DNA from: Yuukianura sp. NJ FZ-2021
Lineage: Eukaryota
DNA length: 64,000 nt
Direction: 5' to 3'
Assembly (NCBI GenBank): GCA_046563655.1
Contig: CM102285.1
Span: forward strand, 6,076,001-6,140,000
Part shown: positions 1,306 to 42,287 of the stretch, piece after piece
How positions within the stretch are numbered: the first letter of the stretch is position 1
How the letters are laid out: the number at the start of each line of letters is the position of its first letter
Program-made: the position numbers and the translations under genes
The notes under the pieces: generated by a model
What the model was told of the DNA's origin: nothing
Seen by the model: the letters and a program-made list of their open reading frames with translations, nothing else
The model's database searches: none

Positions 1306-1336
1306 TATAAGTACTTCCGCGTCAAAACCCACAGTT
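1306..1336 (+). promoter_or_regulatory. Candidate core promoter (TATA + Inr) of the NRPS gene
   Basis: TATAA at 1306-1310 followed ~25 nt later by ACAGTT (Inr-like) at 1331-1336. Possible 5'UTR introns at 1415-1587 and 1716-1937 (GT..AG). Spacing only, no transcript evidence. Confidence 0.3.
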
Positions 1337-1980
1337 TTGGAATTCTCAATTCCTGGCGTTTGGAAGAACTTTGCTTAAAAGGGGCAAGCTAATGTGCATT
1401 GTTGTGAGAAATAAGTATATTTATATTGATTTACTAATAAGACAATAATGCACCCAAAATAATTACACATTTTGTTGAAACAAGTTTTAGCGTCCGGGTC
1501 AAATATTGCCTGCTTGATAACAAAATATTTAGTTTAGGTATTAATATAGCATATTACATATTCAAAAACATATTTTCTTTATTTTAGGCTGCATTTTAAA
1601 GGACAAAACCGCTGTTGAATTCTGTGGTTTAATAACAGAGATCGAAAACATCGACTCATTTTCGTTTATTTCAAAAATTGGCTTACGTTTTCGTCCGCGT
1701 TGGAAAATGTTTACGGTAATGGAAGCGAATGCAGTGGTAAGACATAATACATGTTAATAATGAAGTTATTAAAATTTAAAACAGTCATACACATGTATAG
1801 TTGCAGTTGGGGAAAAGCAAACGTAAATTGCTTATGACTCAAAAATTTGAACATTTTTTTTGTAGAAAACCGCCAAAAAGGGGGATGAAGAGCAATGCCA
1901 AAATGGTGCACTGATTGACGTAACCAAATCGCCGCAGAAAATTGCTGACGAAGATCATCGCCAACGGCAAAACTTATGAA

Positions 1981-4900
1981 ATGGAAGAAGAAGCAACGGG
2001 ACTCCAACAACCAGATTTGAGTTACTTGCTAGCGAAATCCAACTTGGTGCAACCACCGATTAGTTCTAAAAAGGTTCAGTTAAATTTTCAAGGTTTAAAT
2101 GCTGCCTTTGAGCCAGAGGTAGAAAAATTAGGGCTGAGCATAAAAGTGGTTGCGACAATCGTTTTCCATCGATTGCTCCGCATCTACGGGGGGACAGAGG
2201 AGACCGTCGTTCTTGACGCAGATGCCATGCGCGTCTTCACTTTCTTACGACATGATGAGGTAGGTGGTCTCTCCGTTTTGGAAGCCTTGAAACACCTTAA
2301 AGTTAAAAATATTTCGCTGAAACATGAAAAAACTGAAAACGGTTTTGTTACGCTCGAAAACGATTCATTTTTGACGAAAAACGTTTCCAACAAAGCAAAA
2401 ATTGTAACAATGTCAACTCAAAAAAACTGCTCGAATGCAAGTGAATTGTTGCATTTTGAAGCTGTAGAGTTCCCCATGTGGTCGTTTGCTGCAACTAGTT
2501 GCGTAATTTCGGTGGAAATGTTGGACGAAATGATGACTGCGTTTGAAACGATGCTGAATCACGTCATTTTGCATCCGACGGACATGTTAAGGAATTTGCC
2601 ATATTTGAACACAGTGCTACTTGCAATTTTAAAGGATGAATGGAATTCGACGCGCGTTAAATTTTCCAGTGAGGACAACACACTGCTTGAATTGTTCAAA
2701 GAAATGGTTGCAAAATACCCCAACAGGGTAGCTGTGGTGCGTGAGGAAGTGAAGTTAACGTATGCGCAACTGGACATAGAATCGGACAAACTTGCGCACA
2801 GGTTAAGTCAACTGCCATCAGAGGTCATTGACCTTGAAAAGGTCATTGCTCTGTACTTGGACAAAAGTGAGCTCATGTTCGTTGCTATTCTGGCAACTTT
2901 CAAGATCGGATGCGCTTACGTTCCGCTTGACCCTACTTATCCTGCGGCAAGAGTCGAATCCATACTGTCCGACACGCAAGCTAAATGCGTGTTGCTTAAT
3001 CGGCGGTACAAAAAGTTCACGCCATTTTCAAATTTGGTTAAAATTGAAATCGAGTCGGTTTTGACGACGAACGTAGCGGCTGATGCTGTCCGACGTCTAA
3101 ACCTGACACCTAAATCGCTGGCTTATATAATTTTTACGAGTGGAACTAGCGAGGGGCGGCCAAAGGGCGTCATGACAGAACACAGAAACGTCACCAACTA
3201 TGTGAGTGACATGTCACTAAAATACTTTGGACATGATCCAAAAAATTCCGGAGAGGTCATATTGCAACTTTCGAATTACGTTTTTGACGTGGCAGTGGAT
3301 CAGATGTGGCTGGGATTGGCCAATGGCTTAACTTGTCTCATTCCACCACAGAATATGTGGCATGATCCAGAAATATTCTATGCTTATCTTCAAAAACACG
3401 GAGTGACGCATGTTTCCGGAACTCCGTCGTTTCTAAAACAGTTTCACTGGGACAGAATTCCGAGTTTGCGTAGACTAATTTTCGGTGGAGAAAAGTTGAA
3501 CCTCGAATGCTACAAAAGGGTACGCGGGGCAGGGCGATACGAACTGATTAGTATGTTTGGTCCCACCGAATGCACTGTAATTGCTGCACATTATCCAATG
3601 AAAGAATTCAGCACATGCGTGGGAGGTGCGATGGCCAACACAGCGTTTTACATTTTGGACGATGGTATGAATCCGGTACCGGTAGGAACAGTGGGAGAAC
3701 TTTACATAGGTGGGCATGGTGTGTGTCGTGGATACTTAAACCGACCGGAGCTTACGGCGAATGCGTTCGTTCAAAATCCGTTTGGCGGAGAATTTGAACG
3801 GTTGTATAGAACGGGTGATCTTGTTCGTCGTAACTCCGATGGATCAGTTTCATTCATCGGAAGAAAAGACGGTCAGGTCAAAATCCGTGGAAATCGAGTT
3901 GAAATCACAGAGGTGGAGCATGTACTTTTAAATTTCCCGCAAATTGACGATGGAGTTGTAATTGCACGGGAAAAAGAAAAAGACGGAGGTCTAGTTCTAC
4001 TTGGTTACTACGTATCTGTTGTGTCTCTGGATGAAAAATCTATTATTAGTTTCATGAAACAAAAGCTTCCTGACTTTATGGTTCCCTTTAGAGTCATGCG
4101 TATAAACAGCATCCCGTTGACCATTACTGGAAAACTGGATGCACGAAAGCTTCCGAATCCATGTGAAGAAGAACCGGCAATTTTGAAGTTTAGCATTTCT
4201 GAGCTTACTGAAAATGAGGTGAAGGTTTACAACATTTGGAGAGAAGCGATTGGTCCATCGTCAGGTTTCACTATTGACTCAAATTTTTTTGAACTTGGCG
4301 GGGACAGTCTCACCGCATTACAAATTGTTGCCAAACTTAGAGAAAAATGCGGTTTCTCGGCTACTGTTTCACAAATTTTTGAATTTCCAACAATCCGACG
4401 CCTCTGTCTCCAATTGGACAAAATAGAAAGCGTCACTGATCATAAAATAGATAAGGTCACGAGTCTGACCGGCTTGAACAATGGGAAAGTGGATTTGGCT
4501 TTGAACAAGGTCAAGGTCAAAGGTCAAGCCGAAAGTGTTTTCTTTGCAAACAGTTTACAGCAGGGTTTTATTTACAACTACCTCCGCTCTCCACGAGATG
4601 GTGCTTACATTGTCCAAAATTTGTGGCAGTACCATGAGGAAATTGACGTTTCAAAATTCCAAAAAATTTGGTTAACCTTGGTTTGGAAATATCCAAGTTT
4701 GCGGTTGCATTTTGACTGGGAAGATCAGTTGATTCAAATTATCGACGATGAAGCGAAGTTAGATTTTCGGTATTTACCGAATCTGTATGAGCCGATTGAA
4801 ACTTTACTAAAAGCGGATAGAAAAGAAGGTTTCGATTTGAAAAGAGCGCCACTTTTTAGAATTTACTTGATTCGTGAAGGCCCAGAACTGTTTAGTTGCA

Positions 4901-7900
4901 TCTTTAGTAACCACCATGCAATCATAGATGGAATTAGCACTGGTCTGCTTTTGGCTGAGCTCAGTGACCTTTACTCCGGCAAGAGTTTGGATTCAGCAGA
5001 GATCGATGACGCTTACTGCCTGACTCAAAAGTTTATTCAAGATTCTGATTTGTCAAAATCAGGATTGGAGTGGTGGAAATCTCGGTTGGGGCAAGTTGAG
5101 ACACGCAACAGTCTTGTCGGCATTTTGCACAAAAATAAACGACATCTTTCGCTTTTCAGCGTCACTGCTGTTGAATCTCCACAGAAAGCTTCTTTTCGTT
5201 TAGAAGATGAAACTATTTCCAAGTTAAGAAAATTTTCAGTTCAGAATGGATTTACTCTTCAATCAATTTTTCAATTTGCTTGGCACAAAATTTTGTCGGT
5301 TTATGGCACAAGTAAAGATACCGTAACTGGACTCGTTGTTAATGGTCGTAGCGCGCCAGTTCCAGGAATTCATAAATCTGTTGGACCGTATATCAACACA
5401 CTTCCACTGTATGTGCATCATTCAACAAATGACGCAGTCGCAATGATCCGAAAAGTACAACAACTTATACATGAAGTTGCGTCAAGAGAGTATGTTAATT
5501 TAACTGCGTTAAGTTCCGGAGAGGAGCGACTTTTTGATAATGTTTTTGTTTACGAAAATTACGCCGGACTTCCACGCGGAACAGCCGTCTTTGAAAACAT
5601 TGATTACCCGTTAGATTTACTTATCAAAGAAACAAAGTCCGATATCTTAGTTCAACTCACTTTTGATGAAGGACTTTTTGAATTTCAAAAAATTCAACAG
5701 CTTTTGGAAACTTTTAAACATGTCATTTTAGAAATTCCGAAAGGAGCGTTGACGTTGGTAGCGGAAACAGAGGAGGAAGAAATTTGTGAGAAGTTGCGTG
5801 GCCCGGTTGTAGAGTTTGACCAAAATTTAAAGTTGCATCAGCTTTTTGAAGTCAGAGTTTCACAGACGCCGGACAAAGTTGCCCTTTTGACGGAAACGAA
5901 AAAATGGACATTTGCTGAGTTGAATAGCTTAGGAAATGCAATTCGGCGGGAAATTGAAATTCAAAATCCAACCAATCCCGTGATCCCGGCGTTTTTTGAT
6001 GAACCTGCCCTTTTGCCTGCCGCAATTCTTGGAATTTTTAAATCCGGTGGCGGCTATTGCCCGCTGGATTCAAATCTCCCGCCAGAACGAATTACCTTCA
6101 TTTTGCGAGATATTGCTGCGCATGGGCAGAATTCTAAAATGGTCATTTTAACTTTGTCTCACCTTCGACCCAAACTGGATCAGATTTTGCACAAAAACAG
6201 GAATTGGCATATAGGGGTCATTGACATTGACTTAATTTCTGATCCAGTCGGAGTTGCAGGAGCTCCATTTCTGTCAGGAGACATTACAAGCGTCATTTTT
6301 ACTTCAGGGACAACCGGAGTGCCGAAGGGAGTTGTACTGAAACATGGTGGACTCATCAACTATTGCTTAGAGCAAATTCGGACAAACTTTACTTCCGAAG
6401 GTGACGTTGTACTTTCCTTACTAGGCTGGGCATTTGATGGATTCTGGTGTAGTTTGGCTCCAGGAATTTTTGGAAACTGTGCAAGCGCCGTTTTGTCTCC
6501 TAATGCGATTCTAGATGCAGAGAGTGTCGTAGAGTTCGTGATAAACAAAAGAGTGACGCATGTCGTTGGAAATCCGCTTCACCTTTGCCAGCTAAATCTT
6601 CATCGCGTACGAAGTTTGAAAACAATTTTATCTGCTGGCAGTGCCATGACATGCGCAGATGCTTCCAAACTTTTGAGTTTAAACGTTCGTCTTGTAAATG
6701 GATTTGGACCGACCGAAACTTCAGTGATTTCAACATCGGGCGACATTGCCGCCTCGGACGACATACATATTGGACAGCCGTTGGCCAACACAGAGTTGTA
6801 CATTTTGGATGAGGATTTGAACACCGTCCCGAGTGGAGCCGTGGGTGAATTGTACATTGGCGGGAATGGAGTTTGCGCGGGATATTTGAATCGACCAGAA
6901 GAAACTAAGACGCGGTTTATTTCAAATCCGTTTGGGTTAGGACTAATACATAAGTCAGGTGATCTGGTGTCTCTGCGTAGTGACGGGCACTTGGACTATC
7001 ACGGCAGACGAGATTTTCAGGTCAAGGTCAGAGGTTATCGTATCAACCCAGCTGAAATTGAGGCTACGGTGGCCACTTTCTCTGATGTGACGTTTGCAGT
7101 TGTTTCTGTTTTCAATGAAACCTTATTTGGATTTGTAGTTTCCAATGCAGAGGTTTTGGATATTGAACAACTTTTCAAATTTTTGGAGGAAAGACTGCCT
7201 GAATACATGATTCCATCTAGATTTATTCAAATGCAAAGTATACCGTTAAATTCAAACGGAAAAGTAGACTATAAGAGGCTTCAGGAAATTTCACTCGATC
7301 AAGTGGTGCGATCTAGTGAAAAAATTCGGCCGAGCAATATCTTGGAAGAACAAATTTCTACACTTTGGGCCGAAATTCTCCGAATATCGGACAATTCCGA
7401 AAAACCAGGCATTGGTATTACCGAGAACTTTTTTCGGCTAGGTGGAGACAGTATTTCTGCAATTCAAATTGTTTCCCGCCTAAGACAGCGCCTCGGTATC
7501 ACAATCCGAGTGGCAGATGTCTTTAAAACCAAAACGATTCAAACTTTGGCAAAACTCATAAATTCCCAAATGGAAACCCAAATTCCAATTACTACCCCAA
7601 TTTCGGAATCGGGCATGCTGATTGGTCAAGTGCCGCTTTTACCAATCCAGGATTGGTTCTTTGCTAAATTTAAAAAAGGCGGGATGAATCATTTCAATCA
7701 GGCATTCCTTCTTAGAGTTCCGCCTCTAGATGTCAGCCGACTCCAAAAATGTGTATCCGTAATGCATGACTTCCACGATAGTTTGCGGCTGCGTTTTGTT
7801 CTAGAAAATAATACAGTGATTCAAAGTTATGCTGCAGAAACTGTTCCTCCTAAGGTACGTCACTTTTCCCACGAAGAAATTCAAACCAATTCGGAAATAT

Positions 7901-10900: not shown

Positions 10901-13900
10901 CCAAAGGAGTAATCGTTGAGCACAAATCGCTTGTGAACGTAGTTCTAGAAATGAGTCGATTCATGAGCAGTGGAACAGAAGTGGTTTTACCACTGTTTGG
11001 ATGGGGATTTGACGCTATCTGGTCTGCATTAGGAGTGGGGCTACTGTCAGGCGGGGCAACAGTTTTAGCCAATCCCAGCACAGTATTGGACGCAGAACGC
11101 TTAATTCCGTTTTGTACAACAAACTCCGTTACGCAAATCCACGGAAATCCACTTCTCGTGCAGCAATTGCCGCTCGAAAATGTTCCGTCACTGAAAACAG
11201 TTTGTGTAGCAGGGCAAGACATAAGCACTGCATTTGTTGCTCATTTCCGTCAAAAATATCATAATGCTACTCTGATTAACGGATATGGCCCTACGGAAAC
11301 TACTGTAGGTTGTACTTTGGAGAAAATTGAAGATGAATCTGTGTCAATTGGCAAATGTATTGGAAATATCACTGCTCATGTGCTAGATCCATTTGGAATT
11401 CCAGTTCCAATTGGGGTGAAAGGCGAATTGTATATTGGAGGGGTGGGAGTTGCACGCGGGTATTTTCACAATGAAGAAAAAACGAACGAATCTTTTTTGA
11501 AAAATCCATTTGGTCATGGGAAAATTTACAAAACGGGAGATATTGTCTATTGGACAGAAATAGGAAAATTGGTGTACGTGGGACGACGGGATTTCCAAAT
11601 TAAAGTCAGAGGTTATAGAGTAGATTTTAGTGAAATTGAAGCAGCAGTTGAATCTTACGAGGGAATTCAAAAAAGTGTGATTTTGGCCTCAAAAAACGAA
11701 AATGGCCAACAAAAATTAATTTGCTACGCAGTTCCAAACTCTCCACAATGGCCGTCTACTGCACAGGTTTTTGCACACCTTGAAAAGATTTTACCAGAGT
11801 ATATGATTCCGGCAGGAATCCACTTCCTTTCAAAATTGCCGCTAAATTCAAACGGAAAGTTGGACACTGGTAAACTACCGACAATAGAAGAAATAACACA
11901 AGTGAAACGTAAAGCGCCGCGCACGCCTCTAGAGTCACTCATCTGTGAAGCATGGGCGTCTGTTTTTGGTGTAGATGCTGAAACAATTGGGATTGATGAT
12001 AATTTTTTTCGACTCGGCGGCGATTCTGTATCGAGCATTCAAGTTGTCGGAAAACTTAGATCACAACTTGGTGCATCATTTCCAGTAACCGTACGGGATA
12101 TTTTGAATTACAAAACAATTGAATCTTTAGTAGCCAACATTGATTACACTACAATCAAAAATTTTGAAATTGAACAAAAAATTTCTGAAAAAATTGAAAA
12201 TTTTGAAAATGGGCGCTGGATTTGCGAGGCAAATAGTCTACAAGAGGGGTTGGTTTACCACTTTAAAACAAGAGGGCGTCATGCAGATGCCTACGTAGTA
12301 CAGAAAGTGATTCACTATGGTGAGGTCATTGACCTTCCAAAAATAAAAACTGCTTGGACCATGGTACATGCACAGTACCCAGGACTTCGGGTCAAGTTTA
12401 GTTGGAAAAACCGCGTAGAGCAAATTATCGAGGAGGTCATTGAACCTCTAGATTGGAGAGAAGTAACAGCCTTTACTGCGTCCGAATTTGACCAAATTGT
12501 TGCTCGAGATCGGTCGGAAGGATTCGACTTGGAAGCAGGGAATTTGCTTAGGGTCACTTTTGTACAATTATCGGCAATGTTTCAGTGTTTACTGACCGTA
12601 CATCATGCAGTTAGTGATGGTTGGAGTACAAATCTTCTTCTCGGAAACGTCCATGCAACATACTACGCATTGGTCAACGGCAGTTCTCTGCTACCAATGG
12701 CAGTCGACATGTCGTACATGGTTGCACAGCGACATCTCGCGGCAGTACAAAACGAATCTCATGCTTTTTGGGATTCCCTTAATAGTTCAGTTGAATCTCG
12801 GCCTGATTGGTCCAGCCTTTTGCAATCCACATACGATTTAGCACCACAACTCATTGATGAATCAATTTCGAATTCTTTCAAAGTTAGAACCGAGAGTATA
12901 AAAGTATCGACCGAATTGGTCAATGAGGTTCGTCGAATCACTTCCGAAATCGGTGTAACTCCAAACGCTCTATTTCAACTTGCGTGGCACAGAACTCTAC
13001 GTGTATTTGGCCATACCGAACAAACCGTCGTCGGTACAACTGTATCCGGTAGAGACATTCCGGTAGATGGAATTCAAAGTTCAGTAGGTTTGTTTGTAAA
13101 CACTTTGCCTCTGGTACTGGACCACGTTGAACTCGACAATTTAACTGGTGTTGAAGCACTGAAACTTGTTCAAGAGAGGACAATTGAATTGAACGCTAAA
13201 AGTAGTCTGAAGTTAAGCAAATTGAAATCACTCCAATTTGATTCAATTTACGCTTTTGAAAATTATCCAACATGGAGCCAAAATGAAAAATTTGATCAAA
13301 TTTTGAAAGTTTCTTACTCTGAAGGAATTTCTTACGAAGACTATCCATTGCTACTTACAGTGACTTTGAAAGGTCAGGAATGCTCATTAGAGCTACAAAG
13401 TTCGTCAAAATTTTTAGCATCAGCGACAGAACGACTTCTGACTACAATGTACAACGTTGTCCAAAATATTCTAAAAGGAGTTTACAACCGAGTAGACTCT
13501 TATGCATATTTGAACCAATCAGAAATCAAAGAAATTGTTGACAAAAATACTCTCAAGCTTCCTGTTTACACTCATACTGTTCTAAACAACTTTCGGGTAA
13601 ATGTCGCAGAGTGCCCCGAAACAATCGCGGTTATCTACAATGATGTTTCAATTTCGTACAAAGAGTTAGATAGAATGTCGAACTTAATTTGTCGAGATCT
13701 AGTTCGGAACTATTCGCAATTTGTCGGCAGGGATCAGTTAGTACCGATATTTTTAGACAAAAGTCAATGGACACAAATCGGAATCCTTGGAATCATGAAG
13801 ACCGGTTCAGCTTACGTTCCGATCGATCCAATTTTTCCTCCGCAGAGAATTGAAAATATATTGAACGATGTTTCCGCACATGTGATTGTGACTAGTTCTG

Positions 13901-16900
13901 ATCATGCGCACAAATTTCCAAACTACAAGCTGATTTTAGTCGATGTTGTTTCTACCAACACAGATGCAGTTGAGGTAAAAAGCTTAGGGGTGGATCCCCT
14001 TCCAGAAAATTTGGCATACGCAATCTACACAAGCGGCACGAGTACTGGCAAACCAAAGGGGTGTTTGATAGAACACCGAAATTTGATTAACTACTTGGAA
14101 GACACTTCAAATAGACTGTTCGGCGGAGTCAGGGTCAGAGGTCAACGACCTCATGAAGTACTGCTGCAACTGGCAAGTACGACCTTTGACCCCTCAGTGG
14201 ATCAAATATTTCTGGCTTTATACAATGGTTATACTTCAGTCGTACCGCATGCAGATCTCTGGATGGACCGATCTGGCTTTGTGGCTTACTGTTCAAAAAA
14301 CGGTGTTACAAATATTTTTGGCACGCCATCTATGCTAAAACTTTTTAACTTACACGAAATTCCTAGTCTACGGTCAGTCAGAGTCGCTGGAGAAAAAATT
14401 AGTATTGAGGCGTACAACAAGGTCAAAGGTCACGGGTCATACGAAGTTGCCAACGTATGCGGCCCAACTGAAACTACTGTCGTGTCTACTTTTAAGCATA
14501 TGAAGTCATTTACATACTCCGTTGGTCATCCAATAAGCAACGTTTCCTTCTACGTCGTGGATTTTGGCGGGAAGCAATTTGTTCCAGTTGGGGCAATAGG
14601 AGAACTGTATATTGGTGGAGCGGGAGTTGGGCGCGGGTACTTGAATCAGCCAGTTTTAAATGACAAACTATTTAGAACCAATCCGTGGAATTCAGGAGAC
14701 AAAATTTATTGTTCGGGTGATCTCGTTCGGAGACTTCCAGGAGATGAAGTTGAATTTATAGGAAGGAGTGATGGACAAGTCAAAGTTCGCGGATTTCGTG
14801 TTGAATTGGGGGAAGTTGAGACAAGATTGCTTTCACATCCTGAAGTGACAGAGGGCGCTGTTGTTCGTAAGGAACACAATGGAACCAGTCACGTGACTGC
14901 CTACTATATTTCAGCAGTTGACCTCAGTGTTACTGATCTACGTGATTACATGGCACAGATACTTCCAGATTACATGGTTCCTAGTGCTTTTGTTCGTATG
15001 ACTCAGATTCCTCTAACAAACAACGGGAAACTGGACATAAAGGCTTTGCCTCTTCCACAGTCAACTTCAGACCAAGATTCTGATTTTCAAAAACCACAAT
15101 TTGAAATTGAGCGCCAAATCCTTGAAATTTGGGCAGCCGTTTTAGGAATTGAAAGTTCAACAATTAGTACAACCGACAATTTTTTTGCGCTAGGTGGCGA
15201 CTCCATCACTGCTTTACTGATTGCAGAGAAACTAAAATTGACTTTCGGTAGTCGATGCAACGTCACCGTAAAAGACGTAATCAATCTCAAAACTGTTAAA
15301 CTTTTGGCTAAAAATATTGTACAAATCTACGAAAATGTCGCACTGGCTTTACAAGAATCAGGCAAAGTGAACAATTCACACGAAAATTTAAAAAATGACT
15401 CAGTGCAGTGGATAGGAAAATCAAATAGCTTGCAAGAAGGTTTCGTATCTCAGTTTCTAAGTAGAGATGACGAGGATGATTCGTATGCTGTTCAGGTTTT
15501 GTGGAAGTATGAGCATGAAGTTGATGCTCAGGTGCTGAAACGTGCTTGGGAGATTGCTTATTCAAAGCTTCCCGGGCTGAGGGTAAGATTTGAATGGTCG
15601 TCCGAAGTGTTACAAGTTGTTGACAAGGCAGAATTTTCGTTACTGGACTGGCGAGAACATAACTGGGAAAACTTAAACCACGATGCGCAGATGCAAAGTT
15701 TGAACAAACTGCGCATGTCGGACAGGGCAGAGTATTTTGATTTAGCCAAAGGAAATCTTTTGCGCTTGTGCTTAATTAAATGCGGGCCACGTTGTTGGTG
15801 GTGTTTGTTGTCCAACCATCACGCCATTCTGGATGGCTGGTCAAGCTCAATTTTATTGACAACAGTTCATAACATTTATAGCAAAATGTTAGAATCTGGA
15901 GTTGGCAAAATTCAAACAAATTTTGAAATTTTGAAAACGGTGCCTCAAAATGAGGAATTTCAAAGCTGTGTCGAAGAAGATTTAGCATACTTTGAAGCCC
16001 AAGAACAAATTGAGAATAATAGCGTCAACCAGACTGAATTCTGGAAGAAAGTTTTGGGAGAAGTTAGCGAAGAGGCGGATTTCACAAGCTTGACTGCAAC
16101 ACATGCACAATCGCTGAATTTGAAATCTTTGAATTCAAACACCTTGGACTTAAGCACATTACTTCCACGCCTCACTCAACTTTCAAGTACATTTGGATTT
16201 ACTTTCAACACTGTCTTACAATTCGCCTGGCATCAAGTTTTGAGAGTTTTCCTGCGCATGAGCAAAACCGTTGTGGGCACAACGGTATCTGGTAGGAGCG
16301 TGGCTACTCCGGGAGTCTCGCGTTCCGTAGGGCTGTTCATCAACACATTGCCATTAGTAGTTGATCATCATGTTTTGGATAGAATGTGTTTAGTGGATGC
16401 TCTTGAACTTGTCCAGTCAGCTATTCTGGAAATAAGTTCAAAAAGTGGCGGGAAACTTCGTAGTTTGCATAGACAGGGACATTCAGGACGTCCGTTTGAA
16501 AGCCTTTTCGTTTTTGAAAATTTTCCGGAACACGACAACTTAAATTGGGAGACTCGTTTTGGAGTCAAGGAAATTCAAGTTTTTGAAAAATTGGATTTCC
16601 CACTTGTTGTTACTGTTCGAGTTACTGGAAAACAGGAGTTGCAAGTGACGATTCTCAGTTCAAATTCATTTCAACCGTCTAGCGTACGTTCACTCATTCA
16701 AACTTTTGAATTTGTACTTACTTCTGTTCTAGACACTTTGTACTGTAATCCGCAAGCTCTTTGCACTGAAATCTCATACTGCCATAAGTTGAACTTGAGA
16801 ATTCTTGACAATTTCGATAAAAATCCCAGGGATGGTGGTGACAACAATTCTTTAATTGCTGAACAATCTCCCACGTTAATTGATTTGTTTCACATCGCAG

Positions 16901-19557
16901 TGGTAAATCACCCAGAGGCAGTGGCGTTAATTACTGAAGCGGGAAGTTTCACCTACAGTGAGCTTGATATAATGTCGGATGCATTGGCTAGTGAAATTTT
17001 AAAAATTGGCGGGAATTTTGTGGGTCCTGATAAACTAATTGCTCTGTATCTTGAAAAAAGTGAATGGACTGTCATTGGAATTCTAGGAGTCATGAAGACT
17101 GGAAGTGCATATGTGCCCATAGATCCAGAATATCCTGAGCAACATGTACTTCAAATCCTAGAAGATTGTCGCGCGCCAATTTTGATCACAAATAATGTAA
17201 ATTCGATCCTTTCAAAGTTGGCACTTGACTTGATTCAAATTTTTATTGAAACTGCTGGTGCAGAAAAGGCCGAAAAGGGCAACAATTTGGAATCGGAATG
17301 TATTTGCAAACAAAACAAAATTTTTGAAACCGTCTGCGAGGGAAAAAACAAAACTTTGGAAATGGTTATGGCGGAAGAACATAAAATTTCTGGATCCAGT
17401 TTTGTCAGAAACGATGAAAATTTGAAACCGCATTTTGCGGAAAGGAACGAAGTTTTGAAATCAAAATCTGCCACAACTGGAAAAAATTTGGCTTATGTAA
17501 TATACACTAGTGGAACAAGTGGAGAGGGACCTAAAGGATGCTTAATTGAGCAGCACAGTGTTATAAACCTAGTTGAATCTCTGAGTTCAAAATATTATGG
17601 TGGGAAAATACAAAATTGCATGGAGAAGTCCATGGCCGCAGAGGTCATTCTGCAACTGTCAAACTATGTCTATGACCTTTCTGTTCTCCAAATGTGGTTG
17701 GCCCTGTTAAATGGTCACACTATTCTATTGCCATCGCATAAACTGGTTCAAAATGTAGATGACTTGACAGACTTCATGACTCAACATGGTGTTACACATG
17801 TCTCTGGAACGCCATCTTTCCTCAAATTGATTCCATGGCATAAAGTTCCTACACTTAAACGTCTGGTTCTTGGCGGAGAAATGCTCTCATGTGAAGCTTG
17901 GACAGAAATTTCAAAAACGCGGGAATCAAACGTTTTCGAGATTATAAATGAGTACGGGCCGACCGAAACTACAGTAACATCTTCATATTTTCAAATGAAT
18001 GAATACTCTAAATGCATTGGAAGTCCAATTGCACATACTGAATTTTATGTCATGGATGAGAGTTTTAGGATACTGCCAGAAGGCGTTGTAGGAGAATTGA
18101 TGATTGGCGGGAGAGGACTTGCCCGCGGGTATTTAAATCGGCCGGAACTCACTGCCAAAAAATTCGCTTATGTCAATGGTCAACGCTTTTACCGCACAGG
18201 CGATTTGGGTAGACGTGTGGAAGGCTCCAATTTTGAAATTATTGGTAGAAATGACAGCCAGGTTAAAATCAGAGGTCACCGCATTGAATTGGAAGAAATT
18301 GAGCATGCGCTAAGAGGATTTAAAGATGTTACAGACGCTGTTGCTGTTGTAAAAGAAGAAAAGTTAATTGGGTATTATGTTTCAACAAAAGAAATTTCCA
18401 GTGCCCAATTTCGAAATGATTTGCTGAAAAAATTGCCAACAGTTTGCGTTCCTACTGCTTTTGTTCGAATCGACAAAGTACCACTTGCGATTACTGGAAA
18501 AATTGATATTCGCGCTTTGCCGATTCCAGAATTTCATGGCGCCGAAATTCAAATTATGCCAAAATCAAATGAAGAGAAAGCAATTGCACAAATTTGGGCA
18601 GACATTTTGAAAATTCCTGAAGCTCAAATTGGAATTGACCAAGATTTTATTGAATTGGGGGGAGATTCTTTGCTTTTTATGCAAATGATTCAAAAAGTTA
18701 AACACGCCACTGGGCTGAACGTCAAAGTCAATGAAGTTTACAGAGAGAAGACAATCCGAAAATTGGTACTTGGCGCTGAAAAACCTTTGTCTTCTGACTC
18801 TGCTGCGCTTATGCAAGAGAATGTTAGCCTTAAGATGGAAGATTATCCCGAATTTGAATCTTTTGAAGAAATTGAAGGTGTGGGTGACCGAATTTTTCTT
18901 TTCCCACCAGGGTTGGGCGGCGCCGATTCGTACAAGGGGAGCATAGTGCCGTTGCTTCATCCTCACAAACTAGTTCTATTCAACAATTTTTATGAGTTTT
19001 TAAAACAGCGTACTGGAATGCGCATTCCGTATGAAACTGCAGCGAGGGAATACTTGATTCAAATTAAAAAGTTGCAACCAGTCGGTCCTTACCATTTTGT
19101 AGGTTGGAGTTGGGGTGGAGTGATAGCTTTTGAAATTGCGCGCCAACTGACGACAGAGGGCGCTGTAGTTGGAAACGTTTTCATCATTGATTCGTTTTTT
19201 CGGTTGAAAACGGCCCTCTGTCCGGCAGATGCTGAGCGATTGAAAAACGAAAACGATGTTAACTACCACCACGATCCGCCAGAAACTCCGGGGCTGAGGT
19301 CAGTGAACTTTGTTTTGTTCAAGGCCACACAAGTTATACCTAATGGGTTAAACTTAGATGAAGAAGACAACGCTCTAGATAACAGAATTTACACTTATTA
19401 TGTTAACAATACAATACATAATAGCTTGGATTGTGTACTACCGCCACAAACTCCACTTGAAGTGGTGCCAATTGAAACCAATCATTTTCAGTGGTATGAA
19501 AACAAAAAAGTTGTACAAAAAATTGGCAATACAATATTCAACAAAATGGATTGTTAA
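1981..19557 (+). CDS. Five-module nonribosomal peptide synthetase, ACV-synthetase-related (C*-A-T-C-A-T-E-C-A-T-C-A-T-C-A-T-TE), ~5860 aa, single coding exon
   Basis: One open frame; first in-frame ATG at 1981. Five A domains (TSG..PKG at ~3136, 6301, 10879, 14029, 17506, with GPTE, GEL.IGG.G and (T/S)GD motifs). Five T domains (LGGDS at ~4294, 7438, 12013, 15190, 18655). Four C domains (HHAIIDG ~4912, HHAILDG ~9430, HHAVSDG 12601, HHAILDG ~15817). One E domain (PIQDWF, HHLVIDSVSW, EAHGRE, RTVGWFT, PNKGIGYG; ~7620-8950). TE with GWSWG at ~19102. Confidence 0.96.
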   Translation: MEEEATGLQQPDLSYLLAKSNLVQPPISSKKVQLNFQGLNAAFEPEVEKLGLSIKVVATIVFHRLLRIYGGTEETVVLDADAMRVFTFLRHDEVGGLSVLEALKHLKVKNISLKHEKTENGFVTLENDSFLTKNVSNKAKIVTMSTQKNCSNASELLHFEAVEFPMWSFAATSCVISVEMLDEMMTAFETMLNHVILHPTDMLRNLPYLNTVLLAILKDEWNSTRVKFSSEDNTLLELFKEMVAKYPNRVAVVREEVKLTYAQLDIESDKLAHRLSQLPSEVIDLEKVIALYLDKSELMFVAILATFKIGCAYVPLDPTYPAARVESILSDTQAKCVLLNRRYKKFTPFSNLVKIEIESVLTTNVAADAVRRLNLTPKSLAYIIFTSGTSEGRPKGVMTEHRNVTNYVSDMSLKYFGHDPKNSGEVILQLSNYVFDVAVDQMWLGLANGLTCLIPPQNMWHDPEIFYAYLQKHGVTHVSGTPSFLKQFHWDRIPSLRRLIFGGEKLNLECYKRVRGAGRYELISMFGPTECTVIAAHYPMKEFSTCVGGAMANTAFYILDDGMNPVPVGTVGELYIGGHGVCRGYLNRPELTANAFVQNPFGGEFERLYRTGDLVRRNSDGSVSFIGRKDGQVKIRGNRVEITEVEHVLLNFPQIDDGVVIAREKEKDGGLVLLGYYVSVVSLDEKSIISFMKQKLPDFMVPFRVMRINSIPLTITGKLDARKLPNPCEEEPAILKFSISELTENEVKVYNIWREAIGPSSGFTIDSNFFELGGDSLTALQIVAKLREKCGFSATVSQIFEFPTIRRLCLQLDKIESVTDHKIDKVTSLTGLNNGKVDLALNKVKVKGQAESVFFANSLQQGFIYNYLRSPRDGAYIVQNLWQYHEEIDVSKFQKIWLTLVWKYPSLRLHFDWEDQLIQIIDDEAKLDFRYLPNLYEPIETLLKADRKEGFDLKRAPLFRIYLIREGPELFSCIFSNHHAIIDGISTGLLLAELSDLYSGKSLDSAEIDDAYCLTQKFIQDSDLSKSGLEWWKSRLGQVETRNSLVGILHKNKRHLSLFSVTAVESPQKASFRLEDETISKLRKFSVQNGFTLQSIFQFAWHKILSVYGTSKDTVTGLVVNGRSAPVPGIHKSVGPYINTLPLYVHHSTNDAVAMIRKVQQLIHEVASREYVNLTALSSGEERLFDNVFVYENYAGLPRGTAVFENIDYPLDLLIKETKSDILVQLTFDEGLFEFQKIQQLLETFKHVILEIPKGALTLVAETEEEEICEKLRGPVVEFDQNLKLHQLFEVRVSQTPDKVALLTETKKWTFAELNSLGNAIRREIEIQNPTNPVIPAFFDEPALLPAAILGIFKSGGGYCPLDSNLPPERITFILRDIAAHGQNSKMVILTLSHLRPKLDQILHKNRNWHIGVIDIDLISDPVGVAGAPFLSGDITSVIFTSGTTGVPKGVVLKHGGLINYCLEQIRTNFTSEGDVVLSLLGWAFDGFWCSLAPGIFGNCASAVLSPNAILDAESVVEFVINKRVTHVVGNPLHLCQLNLHRVRSLKTILSAGSAMTCADASKLLSLNVRLVNGFGPTETSVISTSGDIAASDDIHIGQPLANTELYILDEDLNTVPSGAVGELYIGGNGVCAGYLNRPEETKTRFISNPFGLGLIHKSGDLVSLRSDGHLDYHGRRDFQVKVRGYRINPAEIEATVATFSDVTFAVVSVFNETLFGFVVSNAEVLDIEQLFKFLEERLPEYMIPSRFIQMQSIPLNSNGKVDYKRLQEISLDQVVRSSEKIRPSNILEEQISTLWAEILRISDNSEKPGIGITENFFRLGGDSISAIQIVSRLRQRLGITIRVADVFKTKTIQTLAKLINSQMETQIPITTPISESGMLIGQVPLLPIQDWFFAKFKKGGMNHFNQAFLLRVPPLDVSRLQKCVSVMHDFHDSLRLRFVLENNTVIQSYAAETVPPKVRHFSHEEIQTNSEILTEVQSSFDLTIGPVWSINYIDGYEDGSARLQFAFHHLVIDSVSWRILVDDLFRLYYATNFEGAIFQTKGTSYRQWVNALRKLYDSSAMNHEKMYWNNISSAYRNTEVSSSIQTILPLGSPTLSVCRFTLDKGTTTALLQVAPKSFNTNVVELILTSLAYVLANTTGNNKNFVTLEAHGREDALIDGVDLSRTVGWFTTMFPFGLSTEKTIGETIMHIKDAFRAIPNKGIGYGILIGYADPPLPPITVNFLGNFDQEGKWTFTNEFAGETCLPKQKDISDALTHNKVEHLSTQSDIQLPSHMSIDISIVQGVLEAELSGNLEQSYLESFGGNLSREIQYVVEYCTNLSRSYLTSSDIGCKISKTVLDKIQKEREIESVFKMSSLQEGFIYYQLSHQQPPYAYHVQHTWNYECDLHPEVMHQAWQEVQFCFPALRLRFCWEAEFVQIVDKSQPLNFSFRDLTSLTLEKRQTEIGAVLQADNIQPFDLATGSLFRVYIVKQGPMTFTTVFTHHHAILDGWSLNVLYTRLHTIYLELLKGQRSQSRQTVDHAYMSAHSYLQEHYSDNLDWWKAYLSRIQEKCDMSGLMRKNRTQEGQRSETINLNLPNEVLRNLKFAASSSGVTLSVVFLYAWHKSLSVFGSCSQSIVGTTVSGRNLPVDGIDTSVGCYINTLPSIFEHTKGNIKQALKTLQEDILELNGKSNVLLSDLVKIADLSENERLFQNIFVYENYPKITDSAQELCISNRTTYERQEFPLAVLVEEDGDSFTCSVTYETTLYDTNQLVKLVNTFENVLRAIAENPKADVTALRYVNDTDHTLLTDWSKKEVPFPEHLLVQDLLQTWVEATPQAVAVTTELASHSFESLWHRIKCVANHLRSVIHFEGTKDVFVPFFISEPHLLAETIFGILKAGGAYVPLDPTLPKSRMANILNQIKPQVVLTVSPLRSILESLSQDLTFKLKVIDLDIDVDWEQGSCSEITGNSNEIQRCSSDAVYMVFTSGSTGTPKGVIVEHKSLVNVVLEMSRFMSSGTEVVLPLFGWGFDAIWSALGVGLLSGGATVLANPSTVLDAERLIPFCTTNSVTQIHGNPLLVQQLPLENVPSLKTVCVAGQDISTAFVAHFRQKYHNATLINGYGPTETTVGCTLEKIEDESVSIGKCIGNITAHVLDPFGIPVPIGVKGELYIGGVGVARGYFHNEEKTNESFLKNPFGHGKIYKTGDIVYWTEIGKLVYVGRRDFQIKVRGYRVDFSEIEAAVESYEGIQKSVILASKNENGQQKLICYAVPNSPQWPSTAQVFAHLEKILPEYMIPAGIHFLSKLPLNSNGKLDTGKLPTIEEITQVKRKAPRTPLESLICEAWASVFGVDAETIGIDDNFFRLGGDSVSSIQVVGKLRSQLGASFPVTVRDILNYKTIESLVANIDYTTIKNFEIEQKISEKIENFENGRWICEANSLQEGLVYHFKTRGRHADAYVVQKVIHYGEVIDLPKIKTAWTMVHAQYPGLRVKFSWKNRVEQIIEEVIEPLDWREVTAFTASEFDQIVARDRSEGFDLEAGNLLRVTFVQLSAMFQCLLTVHHAVSDGWSTNLLLGNVHATYYALVNGSSLLPMAVDMSYMVAQRHLAAVQNESHAFWDSLNSSVESRPDWSSLLQSTYDLAPQLIDESISNSFKVRTESIKVSTELVNEVRRITSEIGVTPNALFQLAWHRTLRVFGHTEQTVVGTTVSGRDIPVDGIQSSVGLFVNTLPLVLDHVELDNLTGVEALKLVQERTIELNAKSSLKLSKLKSLQFDSIYAFENYPTWSQNEKFDQILKVSYSEGISYEDYPLLLTVTLKGQECSLELQSSSKFLASATERLLTTMYNVVQNILKGVYNRVDSYAYLNQSEIKEIVDKNTLKLPVYTHTVLNNFRVNVAECPETIAVIYNDVSISYKELDRMSNLICRDLVRNYSQFVGRDQLVPIFLDKSQWTQIGILGIMKTGSAYVPIDPIFPPQRIENILNDVSAHVIVTSSDHAHKFPNYKLILVDVVSTNTDAVEVKSLGVDPLPENLAYAIYTSGTSTGKPKGCLIEHRNLINYLEDTSNRLFGGVRVRGQRPHEVLLQLASTTFDPSVDQIFLALYNGYTSVVPHADLWMDRSGFVAYCSKNGVTNIFGTPSMLKLFNLHEIPSLRSVRVAGEKISIEAYNKVKGHGSYEVANVCGPTETTVVSTFKHMKSFTYSVGHPISNVSFYVVDFGGKQFVPVGAIGELYIGGAGVGRGYLNQPVLNDKLFRTNPWNSGDKIYCSGDLVRRLPGDEVEFIGRSDGQVKVRGFRVELGEVETRLLSHPEVTEGAVVRKEHNGTSHVTAYYISAVDLSVTDLRDYMAQILPDYMVPSAFVRMTQIPLTNNGKLDIKALPLPQSTSDQDSDFQKPQFEIERQILEIWAAVLGIESSTISTTDNFFALGGDSITALLIAEKLKLTFGSRCNVTVKDVINLKTVKLLAKNIVQIYENVALALQESGKVNNSHENLKNDSVQWIGKSNSLQEGFVSQFLSRDDEDDSYAVQVLWKYEHEVDAQVLKRAWEIAYSKLPGLRVRFEWSSEVLQVVDKAEFSLLDWREHNWENLNHDAQMQSLNKLRMSDRAEYFDLAKGNLLRLCLIKCGPRCWWCLLSNHHAILDGWSSSILLTTVHNIYSKMLESGVGKIQTNFEILKTVPQNEEFQSCVEEDLAYFEAQEQIENNSVNQTEFWKKVLGEVSEEADFTSLTATHAQSLNLKSLNSNTLDLSTLLPRLTQLSSTFGFTFNTVLQFAWHQVLRVFLRMSKTVVGTTVSGRSVATPGVSRSVGLFINTLPLVVDHHVLDRMCLVDALELVQSAILEISSKSGGKLRSLHRQGHSGRPFESLFVFENFPEHDNLNWETRFGVKEIQVFEKLDFPLVVTVRVTGKQELQVTILSSNSFQPSSVRSLIQTFEFVLTSVLDTLYCNPQALCTEISYCHKLNLRILDNFDKNPRDGGDNNSLIAEQSPTLIDLFHIAVVNHPEAVALITEAGSFTYSELDIMSDALASEILKIGGNFVGPDKLIALYLEKSEWTVIGILGVMKTGSAYVPIDPEYPEQHVLQILEDCRAPILITNNVNSILSKLALDLIQIFIETAGAEKAEKGNNLESECICKQNKIFETVCEGKNKTLEMVMAEEHKISGSSFVRNDENLKPHFAERNEVLKSKSATTGKNLAYVIYTSGTSGEGPKGCLIEQHSVINLVESLSSKYYGGKIQNCMEKSMAAEVILQLSNYVYDLSVLQMWLALLNGHTILLPSHKLVQNVDDLTDFMTQHGVTHVSGTPSFLKLIPWHKVPTLKRLVLGGEMLSCEAWTEISKTRESNVFEIINEYGPTETTVTSSYFQMNEYSKCIGSPIAHTEFYVMDESFRILPEGVVGELMIGGRGLARGYLNRPELTAKKFAYVNGQRFYRTGDLGRRVEGSNFEIIGRNDSQVKIRGHRIELEEIEHALRGFKDVTDAVAVVKEEKLIGYYVSTKEISSAQFRNDLLKKLPTVCVPTAFVRIDKVPLAITGKIDIRALPIPEFHGAEIQIMPKSNEEKAIAQIWADILKIPEAQIGIDQDFIELGGDSLLFMQMIQKVKHATGLNVKVNEVYREKTIRKLVLGAEKPLSSDSAALMQENVSLKMEDYPEFESFEEIEGVGDRIFLFPPGLGGADSYKGSIVPLLHPHKLVLFNNFYEFLKQRTGMRIPYETAAREYLIQIKKLQPVGPYHFVGWSWGGVIAFEIARQLTTEGAVVGNVFIIDSFFRLKTALCPADAERLKNENDVNYHHDPPETPGLRSVNFVLFKATQVIPNGLNLDEEDNALDNRIYTYYVNNTIHNSLDCVLPPQTPLEVVPIETNHFQWYENKKVVQKIGNTIFNKMDC

Positions 19558-19954
19558 AATTAACCAAGAATTTTCAGTAGACGGTAGAACAAAATTTAAC
19601 AGAGGGCCAATGTACTTACAGGTTTATAGTTTCCTTAAAAGATGTGCGAGATAGTAATATATAATATAATAATCTATAAATACATAATGTATAATTTTGA
19701 TCAATTTTAGTTTGTTTTCACCAGTAAATCTGTTTGTATGATTAGCATATTTTTAAGGCATACAGAATTTCTAAAACAGTGGAAATATACTATTTAAATG
19801 TATAAACATTGGGCGTCGATTACTCCTTATTCTGGCTTAAATCTTTATAATCATTTCTATGAGTGGAATGGGAACTTATTTCTACTTGAAAGGTCATAAG
19901 GATTCGGTCGATTCATTTTTTTTAGTTTTCGGGTTTTTTTGGGATGTTTTTTTG

Positions 19955-20358
19955 GTTCCTCTGACGTGTCTCCTCATTTTCGTCACACCTTTCTCTATTG
20001 GAATCGGACCAATATGTACATGAGAATTCGTCATTAGGTTACAGTTAGGTTGAGTGAAAGTGATCACTTAACACCACTTTTATGACAATCGATCTAAGAA
20101 AATCCAAATGGAAAATTATAACGTCATATAACATCATCATCATATAACAACTTATAACACCAACGTCATAAGGTGTTGTCCTTTGTCATCATAACGCTTG
20201 GATTCACAGGACTGATGGAAGGAATAGGACGGGCTGGTGGCTACTGGATATTTGGTGGAGCATCTTTCCTCGGTTTGATCTTCATATGCTTTTGTGTACC
20301 TGAAACGAAGGGAAAGTCACAGAAGAAATTAAATCACTTTTCAATTCTGAAAATTAGA
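19955..20358 (+). pseudogene. Remnant of an MFS sugar porter (Tret1/GLUT-like), C-terminal helices only
   Basis: 19955-20014 encodes VPLTCLLIFVTPFSIGIGPI (TM10-like). 20173-20319 encodes ..GYWIFGGASFLGLIFICFCVPETKGKS. The expected continuation EEIKSLF lies in another frame (frameshift ~20320). No N-terminal exons are visible. Confidence 0.7.
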
Positions 20359-28323: not shown

Positions 28324-28755
28324 TACCCCCCGTAACACTTTCTCTGGGGTGGGGAGGAAAAACCTCCAGAGGCGCTAAAATTGCGCGGCAACAAAGACCG
28401 CCAATTTGACAAACAGAAAAACTTAAACACAAAGTTTACAAAAACCAATTCATTTGCCACACTCCTCTAATTATACTGCTGAGTAGTAACCATTCCAGTG
28501 AATATTGGTAATTAGTTTGTCTCCAAGTTAATACTGGTGATTAGTCTGTCATTTAACCTCATACTGGTGATTAGTGAGTCCTTTCAGTTCTTACCAGTCG
28601 GAATTCCTCCTGTCGGTGATCATTTTCAGTTTCTGAAGGTAAGTAAAGTTGCTAATAAACAATTAATGTCTGAGATACGTTTCATTTTGAATGATAAGCT
28701 TTACTTTTAACTGAAATACTACAAATTTAAATACCGTTTTCATTATGAATTCAGG

Positions 28756-40024: not shown

Positions 40025-40181
40025 TCGCCAAATTTATTAACTACAAGCGAAATTAAGAGTAACAGAACTTTTTATACAAATACGTAAATTTAATACAACT
40101 ACGAAATTTAAAAAAGGAAGATTATTGAACAGTTCCCACCAAACTTGGAGTATTCTTAATTCAGTTTTGAATTTTACAACA

Positions 40182-41652: not shown

Positions 41653-41767
41653 ACTTTTTAATTACATTCTGTTTATTTTTTTATTTAGGTTAACTTAAAC
41701 CGTACCTAATTTTCGAATTCATGTATACATAAATAAAATCGAAATAAACCGCTCTAAACGCTGTATA

Positions 41768-42113: not shown

Positions 42114-42287
42114 CTTTTACTAAATAAGTAATAACTATATTATAACATTCTTCGTTGAATACTGAAAACAAACTTGTGCTGCCTAATAAAACATAGTAAT
42201 AATCATCAAATAAACTAAAATTTCTAACTTCGAATTCATTCAAATTCAAATGTAGTTTAGTTCCAAATGGATTTATGTTGGTGTACA

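Follow-up and report, generated by a model that had tools for sequence, protein, structure and literature searches.

Multimodular nonribosomal peptide synthetases (NRPSs) are, to our knowledge, few in animals, and a product is known for almost none of them. Both springtails and the nematode Plectus have acquired ACV synthetase (ACVS; PcbAB/AcvA) horizontally (PMC10531068). NRPS sequences other than ACVS are also recorded from springtail scaffolds, namely a 'second NRPS' in Folsomia candida and NRPS regions in Holacanthella duospinosa; their function is called unclear (PMC10531068, PMC5490193; also PMC11258130). In bdelloid rotifers, horizontally acquired NRPS/PKS genes are induced by a fungal pathogen (PMC11258130). 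The gene described here lies in a stretch of 64,000 nucleotides, referred to below as the window, and encodes a five-module synthetase that the initial annotation had proposed to be animal-encoded, rebuilt from ACVS-like parts and undescribed.

The gene occupies an uninterrupted open reading frame on the forward strand (1942..19557), which comprises 5871 codons from a TTG and translates without a stop. The frame is preceded by an in-frame TAA (1921-1923) and has its first ATG at position 1981. The ORF listing and its translation thus give an intronless coding sequence (1981..19557, forward strand) of 5858 amino acids plus the stop codon, in agreement with the frame of about 5860 residues first proposed from position 1981. 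An open frame of 5871 codons at ∼41% GC is far beyond chance, and it is the only one longer than 900 amino acids among the seven ORFs of at least 250 amino acids in the window. Pfam searches with 23 overlapping 500-residue tiles detected five AMP-binding, five PP-binding, five Condensation-type (four C and one E) and one Thioesterase domain in a colinear array, C*-A-T-C-A-T-E-C-A-T-C-A-T-C-A-T-TE. This is exactly the order, with five modules and an internal epimerisation (E) domain, that had been read from the sequence at the outset. The repeated A-T-C modules and the terminal release domain identify the gene as a multimodular (type I) NRPS.

All domains lie on the forward strand and residue numbers of the Pfam map are counted from the ATG at 1981. 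The protein opens with a region designated C* (1981..2694), which resembles a C-lobe remnant of a condensation domain. Residues 1-238 belong to no Pfam family in the tile searches and harbour no HHxxxD in the motif scan, and a BLASTP search of these 238 residues against 133 fetched NRPSs returned no match: the C-lobe likeness is seen by profile methods only. With hhalign, C* scores 93% against the N-termini of ACVS (E 2.8e-7) and 92.8% against a generic C-domain profile, of which it covers columns 242-463 of 464; it thus fits both equally well, at ∼93% each. The first module continues with A1 (2695..4134; AMP-binding, residues 239-586, and AMP-binding_C; pocket code DVDSIGMVIK) and T1 (4222..4407; PP-binding, residues 748-809). 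The second is composed of C1 (4546..5748; Condensation, residues 856-1256; HHAIID), A2 (5845..7263; AMP-binding, residues 1289-1636; DGCLLAGVIK) and T2 (7351..7560; PP-binding, residues 1791-1860), and is followed by the E domain (7627..9000; Condensation-like from residue 1883; HHLVID). C2 (9031..10347; Condensation, residues 2351-2789; HHAILD) is the sole C domain placed after an E domain and leads into A3 (10408..11859; AMP-binding, residues 2810-3162; DASLCAGVGK) and T3 (11938..12135; PP-binding, residues 3320-3385). The fourth module consists of C3 (12229..13536; Condensation, residues 3417-3852; HHAVSD), A4 (13591..15030; AMP-binding, residues 3871-4221; DPDSRAVVVK) and T4 (15115..15312; PP-binding, residues 4379-4444). 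The fifth comprises C4 (15427..16734; Condensation, residues 4483-4918; HHAILD), A5 (16897..18531; AMP-binding, residues 4973-5385; DLLSVGEVTK) and T5 (18580..18768; PP-binding, residues 5534-5596), and the protein ends with the thioesterase (TE) domain (18838..19554; Thioesterase from residue 5637).

The catalytic motifs are intact, as originally noted, each motif checked being present in every domain. In the motif scan HHxxxD was found in C1-C4 and in E, GGDS in all five T domains, EAHGRE in E, and GWSWG together with NHFQW in TE. The P-loop, GPTE, GRxDxQVKxRG and (N/T)GK(L/V/I)D are retained in five out of five A domains; the P-loop carries a one-residue insertion in A1, A4 and A5. Asp235 and Lys517, which are expected for the activation of an alpha-amino acid through its alpha-carboxyl, are kept in all five A domains. 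A5 further carries a Lys/Glu/Asn-rich insert (∼17265-17487). Its interpretation as an unspliced in-frame intron was rejected, as the segment is not bounded by GT..AG with an accompanying pyrimidine tract and reads like a loop of this same residue bias.

The relationship to ACVS was addressed with FastTree phylogenies, midpoint-rooted and built on chosen sub-samples. The E domain of the window falls within a group of 87 such domains (support 0.96); 75 of them precede a TE, and the group includes all 20 E domains from proteins with ACV codes. The TE tree comprises 152 TEs, among them those of 62 'E-TE', 21 ACVS-architecture and 15 'A-TE' proteins. Here the window TE pairs with that of P0136, a protein from a metagenome contig (support 1.0), among E-TE proteins; the TE of P0144 is the nearest neighbour of this pair (0.86), and the 100-terminal clade around the window TE leaves out 20 of the 21 TEs of ACVS architecture. 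C1-C4 form a clade with the C domain of the same relative and P0270 (0.87), C3 pairing with C4, and the first C domain of ACVS comes out as sister to those of the window at a weak node (0.51). Among the A domains, A1, A4 and A5 group together (0.97; 41-45% pairwise identity), as do A2 and A3 (0.995; 38%), and the window A domains join those of ACVS at a similarly weak support of 0.56. The TE, C and A trees thus show the window domains as relatives of the ACVS clades and not as members of them.

ACVS-like matches read A-C-A-C-A-E-TE, and 20 of the 21 ACVS-architecture proteins carry the pocket codes EPRS..EF.K, DHE.D.GITK and DFE..AA.YK. As none of the five window codes matches these aminoadipate, cysteine and valine codes, and no member of the 2OG-Fe(II) oxygenase family, to which isopenicillin N synthase (IPNS) belongs, occurs among the 163 ORF pieces scanned outside the NRPS in the window, the enzyme is on these criteria not an ACV synthetase, as the initial annotation had also concluded. 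By the evidence of the trees it is related to ACVS, and its nearest relatives are other E-TE synthetases. The idea of a protein rebuilt from ACVS-like parts is consequently sustained by the E clade, the C domains and the TE family, and weakened by a TE whose nearest neighbour is non-ACVS and by the A-domain link at 0.56. Some of the supposed ACVS hallmarks are not specific to ACVS: the TE does belong to a family that includes it, but PLLPIQxWF corresponds to the E1 core motif shared by epimerisation domains in general, and C* fits a generic C-domain profile equally well.

P0136 is encoded on metagenome contig L001, which was recovered by a metagenome scan with P0136; an earlier scan with a two-sequence alignment had found no relative. 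The protein is colinear with A4-T4-C4-A5-T5-TE and identical at 973 of 1717 columns. On L001 the GPTETT motif is split by 84 nucleotides (973-1056) that display GT..AG boundaries, a pyrimidine tract and an in-frame stop inside. This intron maps into A4 at window position 14467/14468, where the window sequence is continuous. On removal of the 84 nucleotides, L001 presents 1968 open codons, 58.9% identical to the window protein. The relative shares nine out of ten positions of the A5 pocket code and conserves the P-loop insertion; the A5 insert is missing from it. In the L001 flank (5994-8427) no Pfam family was recognised, and at the DNA level it is unlike the window flanks. Between the window gene and its relative, 1936 codon pairs give a pN of 0.239 and a pS of 0.748, the latter being saturated. 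At the level of this sequence comparison, a dN/dS far below 1 shows long purifying selection, on the assumption that both genes descend vertically. The 34 variants listed inside the ORF include 18 synonymous and 16 non-synonymous changes, about a quarter being expected to be synonymous by chance.

Downstream of the NRPS gene, five minus-strand ORF pieces (22702-24601) encode a rhodopsin-family GPCR (7tm_1); a PDZ gene, MADF/zf-C2H2 genes and a multi-exon P450 also lie on this side. The best named single-domain matches of the P450 exon are from the springtails Orchesella cincta (51%) and O. dallaii (49%), with insects next. The multi-exon GPCR and P450 in the window confirm the view that the NRPS is embedded among intron-containing genes; the 'IR genes' also mentioned in the initial annotation found no counterpart, no ligand-gated channel family being detected by Pfam scans of the window ORFs. 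Upstream, 1.9 kb contain no recognisable gene. A sugar-transporter fragment beside the NRPS gene looks decayed, and neither Pfam nor PDB offers a match for the 863-residue ORF at 31094-33685. A search for a gene cluster in the window revealed no IPNS-type oxygenase, PPTase, ABC transporter or MbtH. The P450 was considered as a tailoring gene and dropped, as it is of an arthropod CYP type. There is no tailoring gene beside the NRPS within the window.

The composition of the NRPS gene (GC 0.414, GC3 0.373) compares with 0.40-0.47 and 0.36-0.43, respectively, in four neighbour gene sets, and its RSCU correlates with those of the neighbour sets at 0.70-0.79, against 0.60-0.74 among the neighbour sets themselves. 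Four DNA runs from two studies (X1-X4) contain the stretch, with 30 of 30 depth bins covered in each. The depth of the gene and its flanks is of one order in X1-X3; in X1 the 5' flank (12-18) is somewhat below the gene (23-50). A contig from X4, which belongs to the second study, spans 19461-20170 and crosses the stop codon. No listed contig spans the whole gene, and the upstream linkage to the host is given by read depth alone. 'Joints' in X1 that skip 3.7-16 kb between modules were rejected as deletions, their sides being only 20-26 letters long, and are taken to be artefacts of an assembly that leapt between A and C motifs resembling each other. Because its neighbours are of animal type and bear introns, the read depth is even, the codon usage is host-like and the relative has an intron, the gene belongs to the host, an arthropod and probably a springtail. 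The proposal of an animal-encoded enzyme is upheld on the same four grounds.

It is likely that this gene, in an arthropod host that is most likely collembolan, goes back to a microbial NRPS of the wider ACVS-related E-TE group that was gained by horizontal transfer, and that it has been kept functional by selection. The inferred ancestor would have had the architecture A-T-C-A-T-E-TE, and three C-A-T modules, copied from those it already had, would have been inserted between E and TE; the clearest duplicate pair is formed by modules 4 and 5. A host PPTase would phosphopantetheinylate the synthetase. According to the colinearity rule, the five A domains would each load one alpha-amino acid, the residue bound to T2 would be epimerised, C1 to C4 would assemble a pentapeptide and the serine TE would free it, hydrolysis of the kind used by ACVS being the most likely route. 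Five A domains and epimerisation on T2 thus predict, by that rule, a pentapeptide with a D-residue at position 2, and its building blocks would be other than aminoadipate, cysteine and valine. As an intact, intron-free five-module NRPS resides in an arthropod genome, the animal itself probably makes a small peptide.

Microbial contamination or a chimeric assembly join, which would place the gene outside the animal genome, is extremely improbable. Such an origin would suit an ORF without introns, an upstream interval of 1.9 kb without a recognisable host gene, closest named relatives that are bacterial or fungal (30-42% identity) and the fact that the whole gene is spanned by no listed contig. 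Against these features stand the host-like codon usage and GC, the comparable depth of the gene and both flanks in X1-X3 and the second-study contig across the 3' end. Moreover, no prokaryotic protein exceeds ∼43% identity over the full TE, and the sole close relative among 1.84 billion representatives has an intron of spliceosomal type. It is also very unlikely that the locus is a decaying or silent relic of the transfer, its frame open and the gene neither expressed nor functional: a 17.6-kb frame has stayed open in AT-rich DNA, the catalytic motifs are all kept, variants are enriched in synonymous changes, and the comparison with the L001 relative, where pN is 0.24 and pS, at 0.75, is saturated, betrays long purifying selection. 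In that relative the A5 pocket code is conserved, as is the insertion in the P-loop. The observations that would speak for a relic are the unusual nature of that one-residue insertion in A1, A4 and A5, the lack of partner genes nearby and the decayed appearance of the adjoining sugar-transporter fragment.

The host gene being active, its product may still differ from a linear L-D-L-L-L pentapeptide, an alternative that is unlikely without being negligible. The L-D-L-L-L reading appears insecure because all four C domains, and not C2 alone, lie in the post-E (DCL-like) clade: C1-C4 fall in a group of 90 terminals that holds 57 of the 57 sampled C domains that follow an E domain and 4 of the 62 other C domains that follow A-T. 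The first ACVS C domain, which takes delta-linked aminoadipate, lies inside this clade and the second lies outside. The DCL-like C1, C3 and C4 may consequently take D-configured, achiral or side-chain-linked donors; in addition, the TE may cyclise, and modules may be skipped or reused. Two further traits point in this direction, namely a TE of a family normally served by an E domain that here follows A5-T5, and five pocket codes that match no code assignable in this analysis. On the other hand, C1-C4 are mutual closest relatives and their position may reflect descent rather than selectivity, the five A domains keep Asp235 and Lys517, and a single E domain is present, with no racemase seen in the window.

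Returning to the preferred reading of a selected host gene, a broader scenario may be sketched tentatively: a soil arthropod lineage may have kept its own five-module synthetase of duplicated modules, with three C-A-T units between E and TE, over a divergence that saturates synonymous sites, and may make a D-residue-containing pentapeptide for defence or for control of its microbiome. If true, this would be the first multi-residue nonribosomal peptide, beta-lactam precursors aside, to be credited to the genome of an arthropod itself. Since the enzyme is intact and under selection, is clearly related to the ACVS group and has a relative with an intron, the idea of a nonribosomal pentapeptide made by an animal can be put directly to the test. 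The gene also illustrates an E-TE termination unit split open by the insertion of modules, and would be a further case of microbial biosynthesis recruited by soil micro-animals. The advance is one of anatomy and evolutionary placement and not of new principle, non-ACVS NRPSs of springtails having already been flagged in the literature.

Compared with known systems, the locus shares with ACVS an E domain from one clade of domains that mostly stand before a TE, and a TE of one family, at 33-36% identity. ACVS also has a truncated condensation-like domain ahead of A1, to which C* bears a resemblance no closer than to C domains in general. Copies of ACVS, like the window gene, occur in soil invertebrates (PMC10531068). 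In contrast, ACVS has three modules ending in A-T-E-TE, with E directly before TE, whereas the window protein has five, with E internal after module 2 and the TE following A5-T5. Two unnamed E-TE-type NRPSs come from metagenomes/Logan assemblies, P0144 (C-A-C-A-E-TE) and P0161 (A-C-A-E-C-A-TE). P0161 has the same internal A-C-A-E-C-A order and is colinear with window residues 202-3392, but both proteins have two or three modules and show 30-31% identity over the alignments. The F. candida and H. duospinosa NRPSs can be compared by description only, the sections of the reports that treat them giving no architecture, sequence or product (PMC10531068, PMC5490193). The window gene is therefore 'undescribed' in a restricted sense: non-ACVS NRPS regions of springtails are in print, and in those sections they stand without architecture or product (PMC10531068, PMC5490193). 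The bdelloid rotifers represent a different phylum, and their induced clusters are, in the sections concerned, mostly PKS-NRPS hybrids; like the window gene, theirs are multimodular synthetases of foreign derivation domesticated in a soil or freshwater micro-animal (PMC11258130). Two Rotaria proteins, P0200 and P0170, share the TE family of the window enzyme and are among its better A-domain matches, with 37-43% for A1 and A4.

The window holds a single very long ORF, 1942..19557 (+), which is stop-free on translation; an in-frame TAA occupies 1921-1923 and the first ATG lies at 1981, giving a protein of 5858 residues. Pfam mapping of this NRPS as whole thirds and 23 overlapping tiles, in which the epimerisation (E) domain scored as Condensation-like, yielded a segment of no family (residues 1-238) followed by A, T, C, A, T, E, C, A, T, C, A, T, C, A, T and thioesterase (TE), the same order as that proposed in the initial annotation for 1981..19557. 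In a motif scan, C1-C4 and E each contained HHxxxD, and E also EAHGRE; each of the five T domains had GGDS, each of the five A domains its core motifs, and the TE both GWSWG and NHFQW. Every domain and motif required of a working five-module NRPS is present. Core motif A3 (the P-loop, TSGTS-x-G-x-PKG) has one extra residue in domains A1 (3136-3168, +), A4 (14029-14061, +) and A5 (17506-17538, +). The extra residue also occurs in A5 of P0136, a relative encoded on metagenome contig L001. Residues 1-238 are without HHxxxD in the motif scan and match the N-termini of ACV synthetase (ACVS, PcbAB), the penicillin-precursor enzyme, at 93% and a generic C-domain profile (columns 242-463/464) at 92.8%; they represent a remnant of the C-terminal lobe of a C domain and are not specifically of ACVS type.

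The specificity pockets separate this enzyme from ACVS. Codes of ten positions per A domain were taken from a motif-anchored alignment, and 20 of 21 ACVS-architecture proteins have EPRS..EF.K, DHE.D.GITK and DFE..AA.YK in common. The window codes are DVDSIGMVIK (A1), DGCLLAGVIK (A2), DASLCAGVGK (A3), DPDSRAVVVK (A4) and DLLSVGEVTK (A5, nine of ten positions being kept in P0136). Because none of the five matches the ACV codes, and an oxygenase of the isopenicillin N synthase type is absent from the 64-kb window, the NRPS is not an ACV synthetase, as initially proposed. A TE-only search restricted to proteins of 3229-10275 aa gave 13 matches, the best 10 of which are 3664-3810 aa long, 33-36% identical and, when mapped by HMMs built from the window domains, read A-C-A-C-A-E-TE.

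Per-domain trees place the enzyme close to the ACVS group. Among 152 TEs, those of the window and P0136 pair (1.0) and adjoin P0137 and P0144, amid proteins whose E domain directly precedes TE (E-TE); 20 of the 21 ACVS-architecture TEs fall outside the 100-terminal clade containing the window TE. In the tree of 195 E domains, the internal E belongs to an 87-member clade (0.96), 75 of whose members are followed by a TE, among them all 20 from proteins with ACV codes, and only 8 by a C domain. The four window C domains form a clade with the C domain of P0136 and with P0270 (0.87; 183 C domains), C3 and C4 being paired (0.99). This clade adjoins the first ACVS C domain (0.51; further out 0.82-0.98), and both fall within a larger clade of 90 terminals (0.79), to which all 57 sampled post-E C domains belong but just 4 of the 62 others that follow A-T; the second ACVS C domain is not part of it. 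Among 206 A domains, A1, A4 and A5 group (0.97; pairwise identity 41-45%), as do A2 and A3 (0.995; 38%), and all five sit in one group of ten whose junction with ACVS A domains reaches only 0.56. The initial description of ACVS-like parts is thus upheld by the E clade, the position of the C domains beside the first ACVS C domain and the TE family, but not by the TE clade, which excludes 20 of the 21 ACVS-architecture TEs, and the A-domain link is weak. The NRPS is a relative of the ACVS group, not a member.

The surroundings of the gene are of animal type. Five minus-strand ORF pieces (22702-24601) represent a rhodopsin-family GPCR, beyond which lie PDZ, MADF/zinc-finger and subtilase genes and a multi-exon P450, whose last exon has its best named single-domain matches in Orchesella cincta (51%) and O. 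dallaii (49%), followed by insects. These neighbours and the springtail, then insect, matches indicate an arthropod host, probably, from the P450 matches, a collembolan. The GC content (0.414) and GC3 (0.373) of the NRPS lie within the span of four sets of neighbouring genes; its RSCU correlates with these at 0.70-0.79, at least as well as the sets do among themselves (0.60-0.74). The stretch is present in four DNA sequencing runs (X1-X4) from two studies; reads cover 30 of 30 bins over 1001-21000 in every run, gene and flank depth are of one order in X1-X3, and an X4 contig (19461-20170) crosses the stop codon. None of the listed run contigs spans the whole NRPS, no recognisable gene was found in the 1.9 kb 5' of it, and the exact window proteins are absent from a collection of 15 billion proteins. 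Over 9079-10509 (C2 region), X4 has a 1468-letter contig matching at ~93% (99 other letters) with a depth of 498, against 3-15 over most of the NRPS in that run; a paralogue, a related organism present in the sample or unevenness of the data might account for it.

Further evidence comes from P0136. In a TE-only search of 1.84 billion representatives (9081 matches at E <= 0.001) it was the sole close match (60% identity, E 1e-93), the next full-length TEs being ~36-43% identical. Since the library was clustered at 50% identity and the long-protein search had a floor of 3229 aa, P0136 could be masking an orthologue that is annotated but fragmented. P0136, from a contig of 8427 bases, aligns colinearly with the C-terminal part of A4 and with T4-C4-A5-T5-TE, 973 of the 1717 columns being identical. 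On L001, 84 nt (973-1056) with a GT start, a pyrimidine tract and AG end, and an in-frame stop split the A4 motif GPTETT; the window is unbroken at the corresponding 14467/14468. Minus these 84 nt, L001 has 1968 open codons with 58.9% identity to window residues 3842-5856. The insert has the hallmarks of a spliceosomal intron acquired within a eukaryotic host. Across 1936 codon pairs, a pN of 0.239 and a saturated pS of 0.748 point to long divergence under purifying selection; among the 34 listed of ~880 differences counted, 18 variants in the ORF are synonymous and 16 are not. Animal-type neighbours, composition, read data and the intron-bearing relative together bear out the view that the NRPS is animal-encoded: it is a real, host-resident, five-module enzyme selected long-term.

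Other features accompany it. Directly 3' of the NRPS stop lie a fragment that matches the C-terminal end of the sugar/MFS transporter family (20158-20412, +; Sugar_tr profile 397-449 of 452, E 9.5e-7) and a preceding, stop-terminated, transporter-like transmembrane piece (19841-20020, +): either a decayed transporter gene, or a sign that the NRPS sits inside or beside a transporter with other exons elsewhere. Two subtilase (Peptidase_S8) genes, each across two frames (40041-41652 and 56771-58274, +), are closest among solved structures to proteinase K, Tk-subtilisin and subtilisin BPN' rather than to furin-type enzymes of animals, and may be further foreign-derived genes, now intron-bearing. 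A segmental duplication (40177-46638 versus 49187-57814) with subtilase and MADF/zinc-finger genes comprises six direct-repeat families of 72-94% identity, spaced 6.8-16.6 kb. An ORF at 28711-29241 (+), weakly matching a Tc3-type transposase HTH (E 0.0012), resembles the remnant of a transposon, situated between the GPCR and an uninterrupted 863-aa ORF (31094-33685, +), for which no Pfam family or solved-structure match was found.

The pairing of C3 with C4 at 0.99 and the grouping of A4 with A5 and A1 suggest that three C-A-T modules were added between the E and TE domains of an E-TE ancestor. As each of the five A domains retains Asp235 and Lys517, the holo-enzyme would load five alpha-amino acids; residue 2 would be epimerised and the pentapeptide released, probably via hydrolysis as in ACVS. 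With C1-C4 all belonging to the post-E (DCL-like) lineage, the L-D-L-L-L product initially predicted stands as a default assumption, not as a finding, and a defensive role is a guess drawn from the analogy with rotifers (PMC11258130).

Among known systems, the unnamed P0161 mirrors the first three modules in its A-C-A-E-C-A-TE order (30% identity), and Rotaria rotifer proteins and a tardigrade 'ACV synthase-like' protein belong, like P0161, to the TE family of the window enzyme. A Paramacrobiotus protein so annotated (P0192, 3354 aa) has codes EPRSLAEFVK, DHESDVGITK and DLETTAAVYK, identical or nearly so to the three ACV codes; PMC10531068 states that the two tardigrade species it screened yielded no NRPS. 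Literature searches on Collembola NRPS, springtail nonribosomal peptide and horizontal gene transfer, and tardigrade isopenicillin turned up no account of a five-module springtail NRPS or its product. Folsomia candida is reported to have a second NRPS, of non-ACVS type, and Holacanthella several NRPS regions (PMC10531068); PMC5490193 counts three NRPS clusters in F. candida, and PMC11258130 calls the functions of these springtail NRPSs unclear. Contrary to its initial rating, the window NRPS is not near-unique and falls among the horizontally derived NRPSs already known from soil micro-animals.
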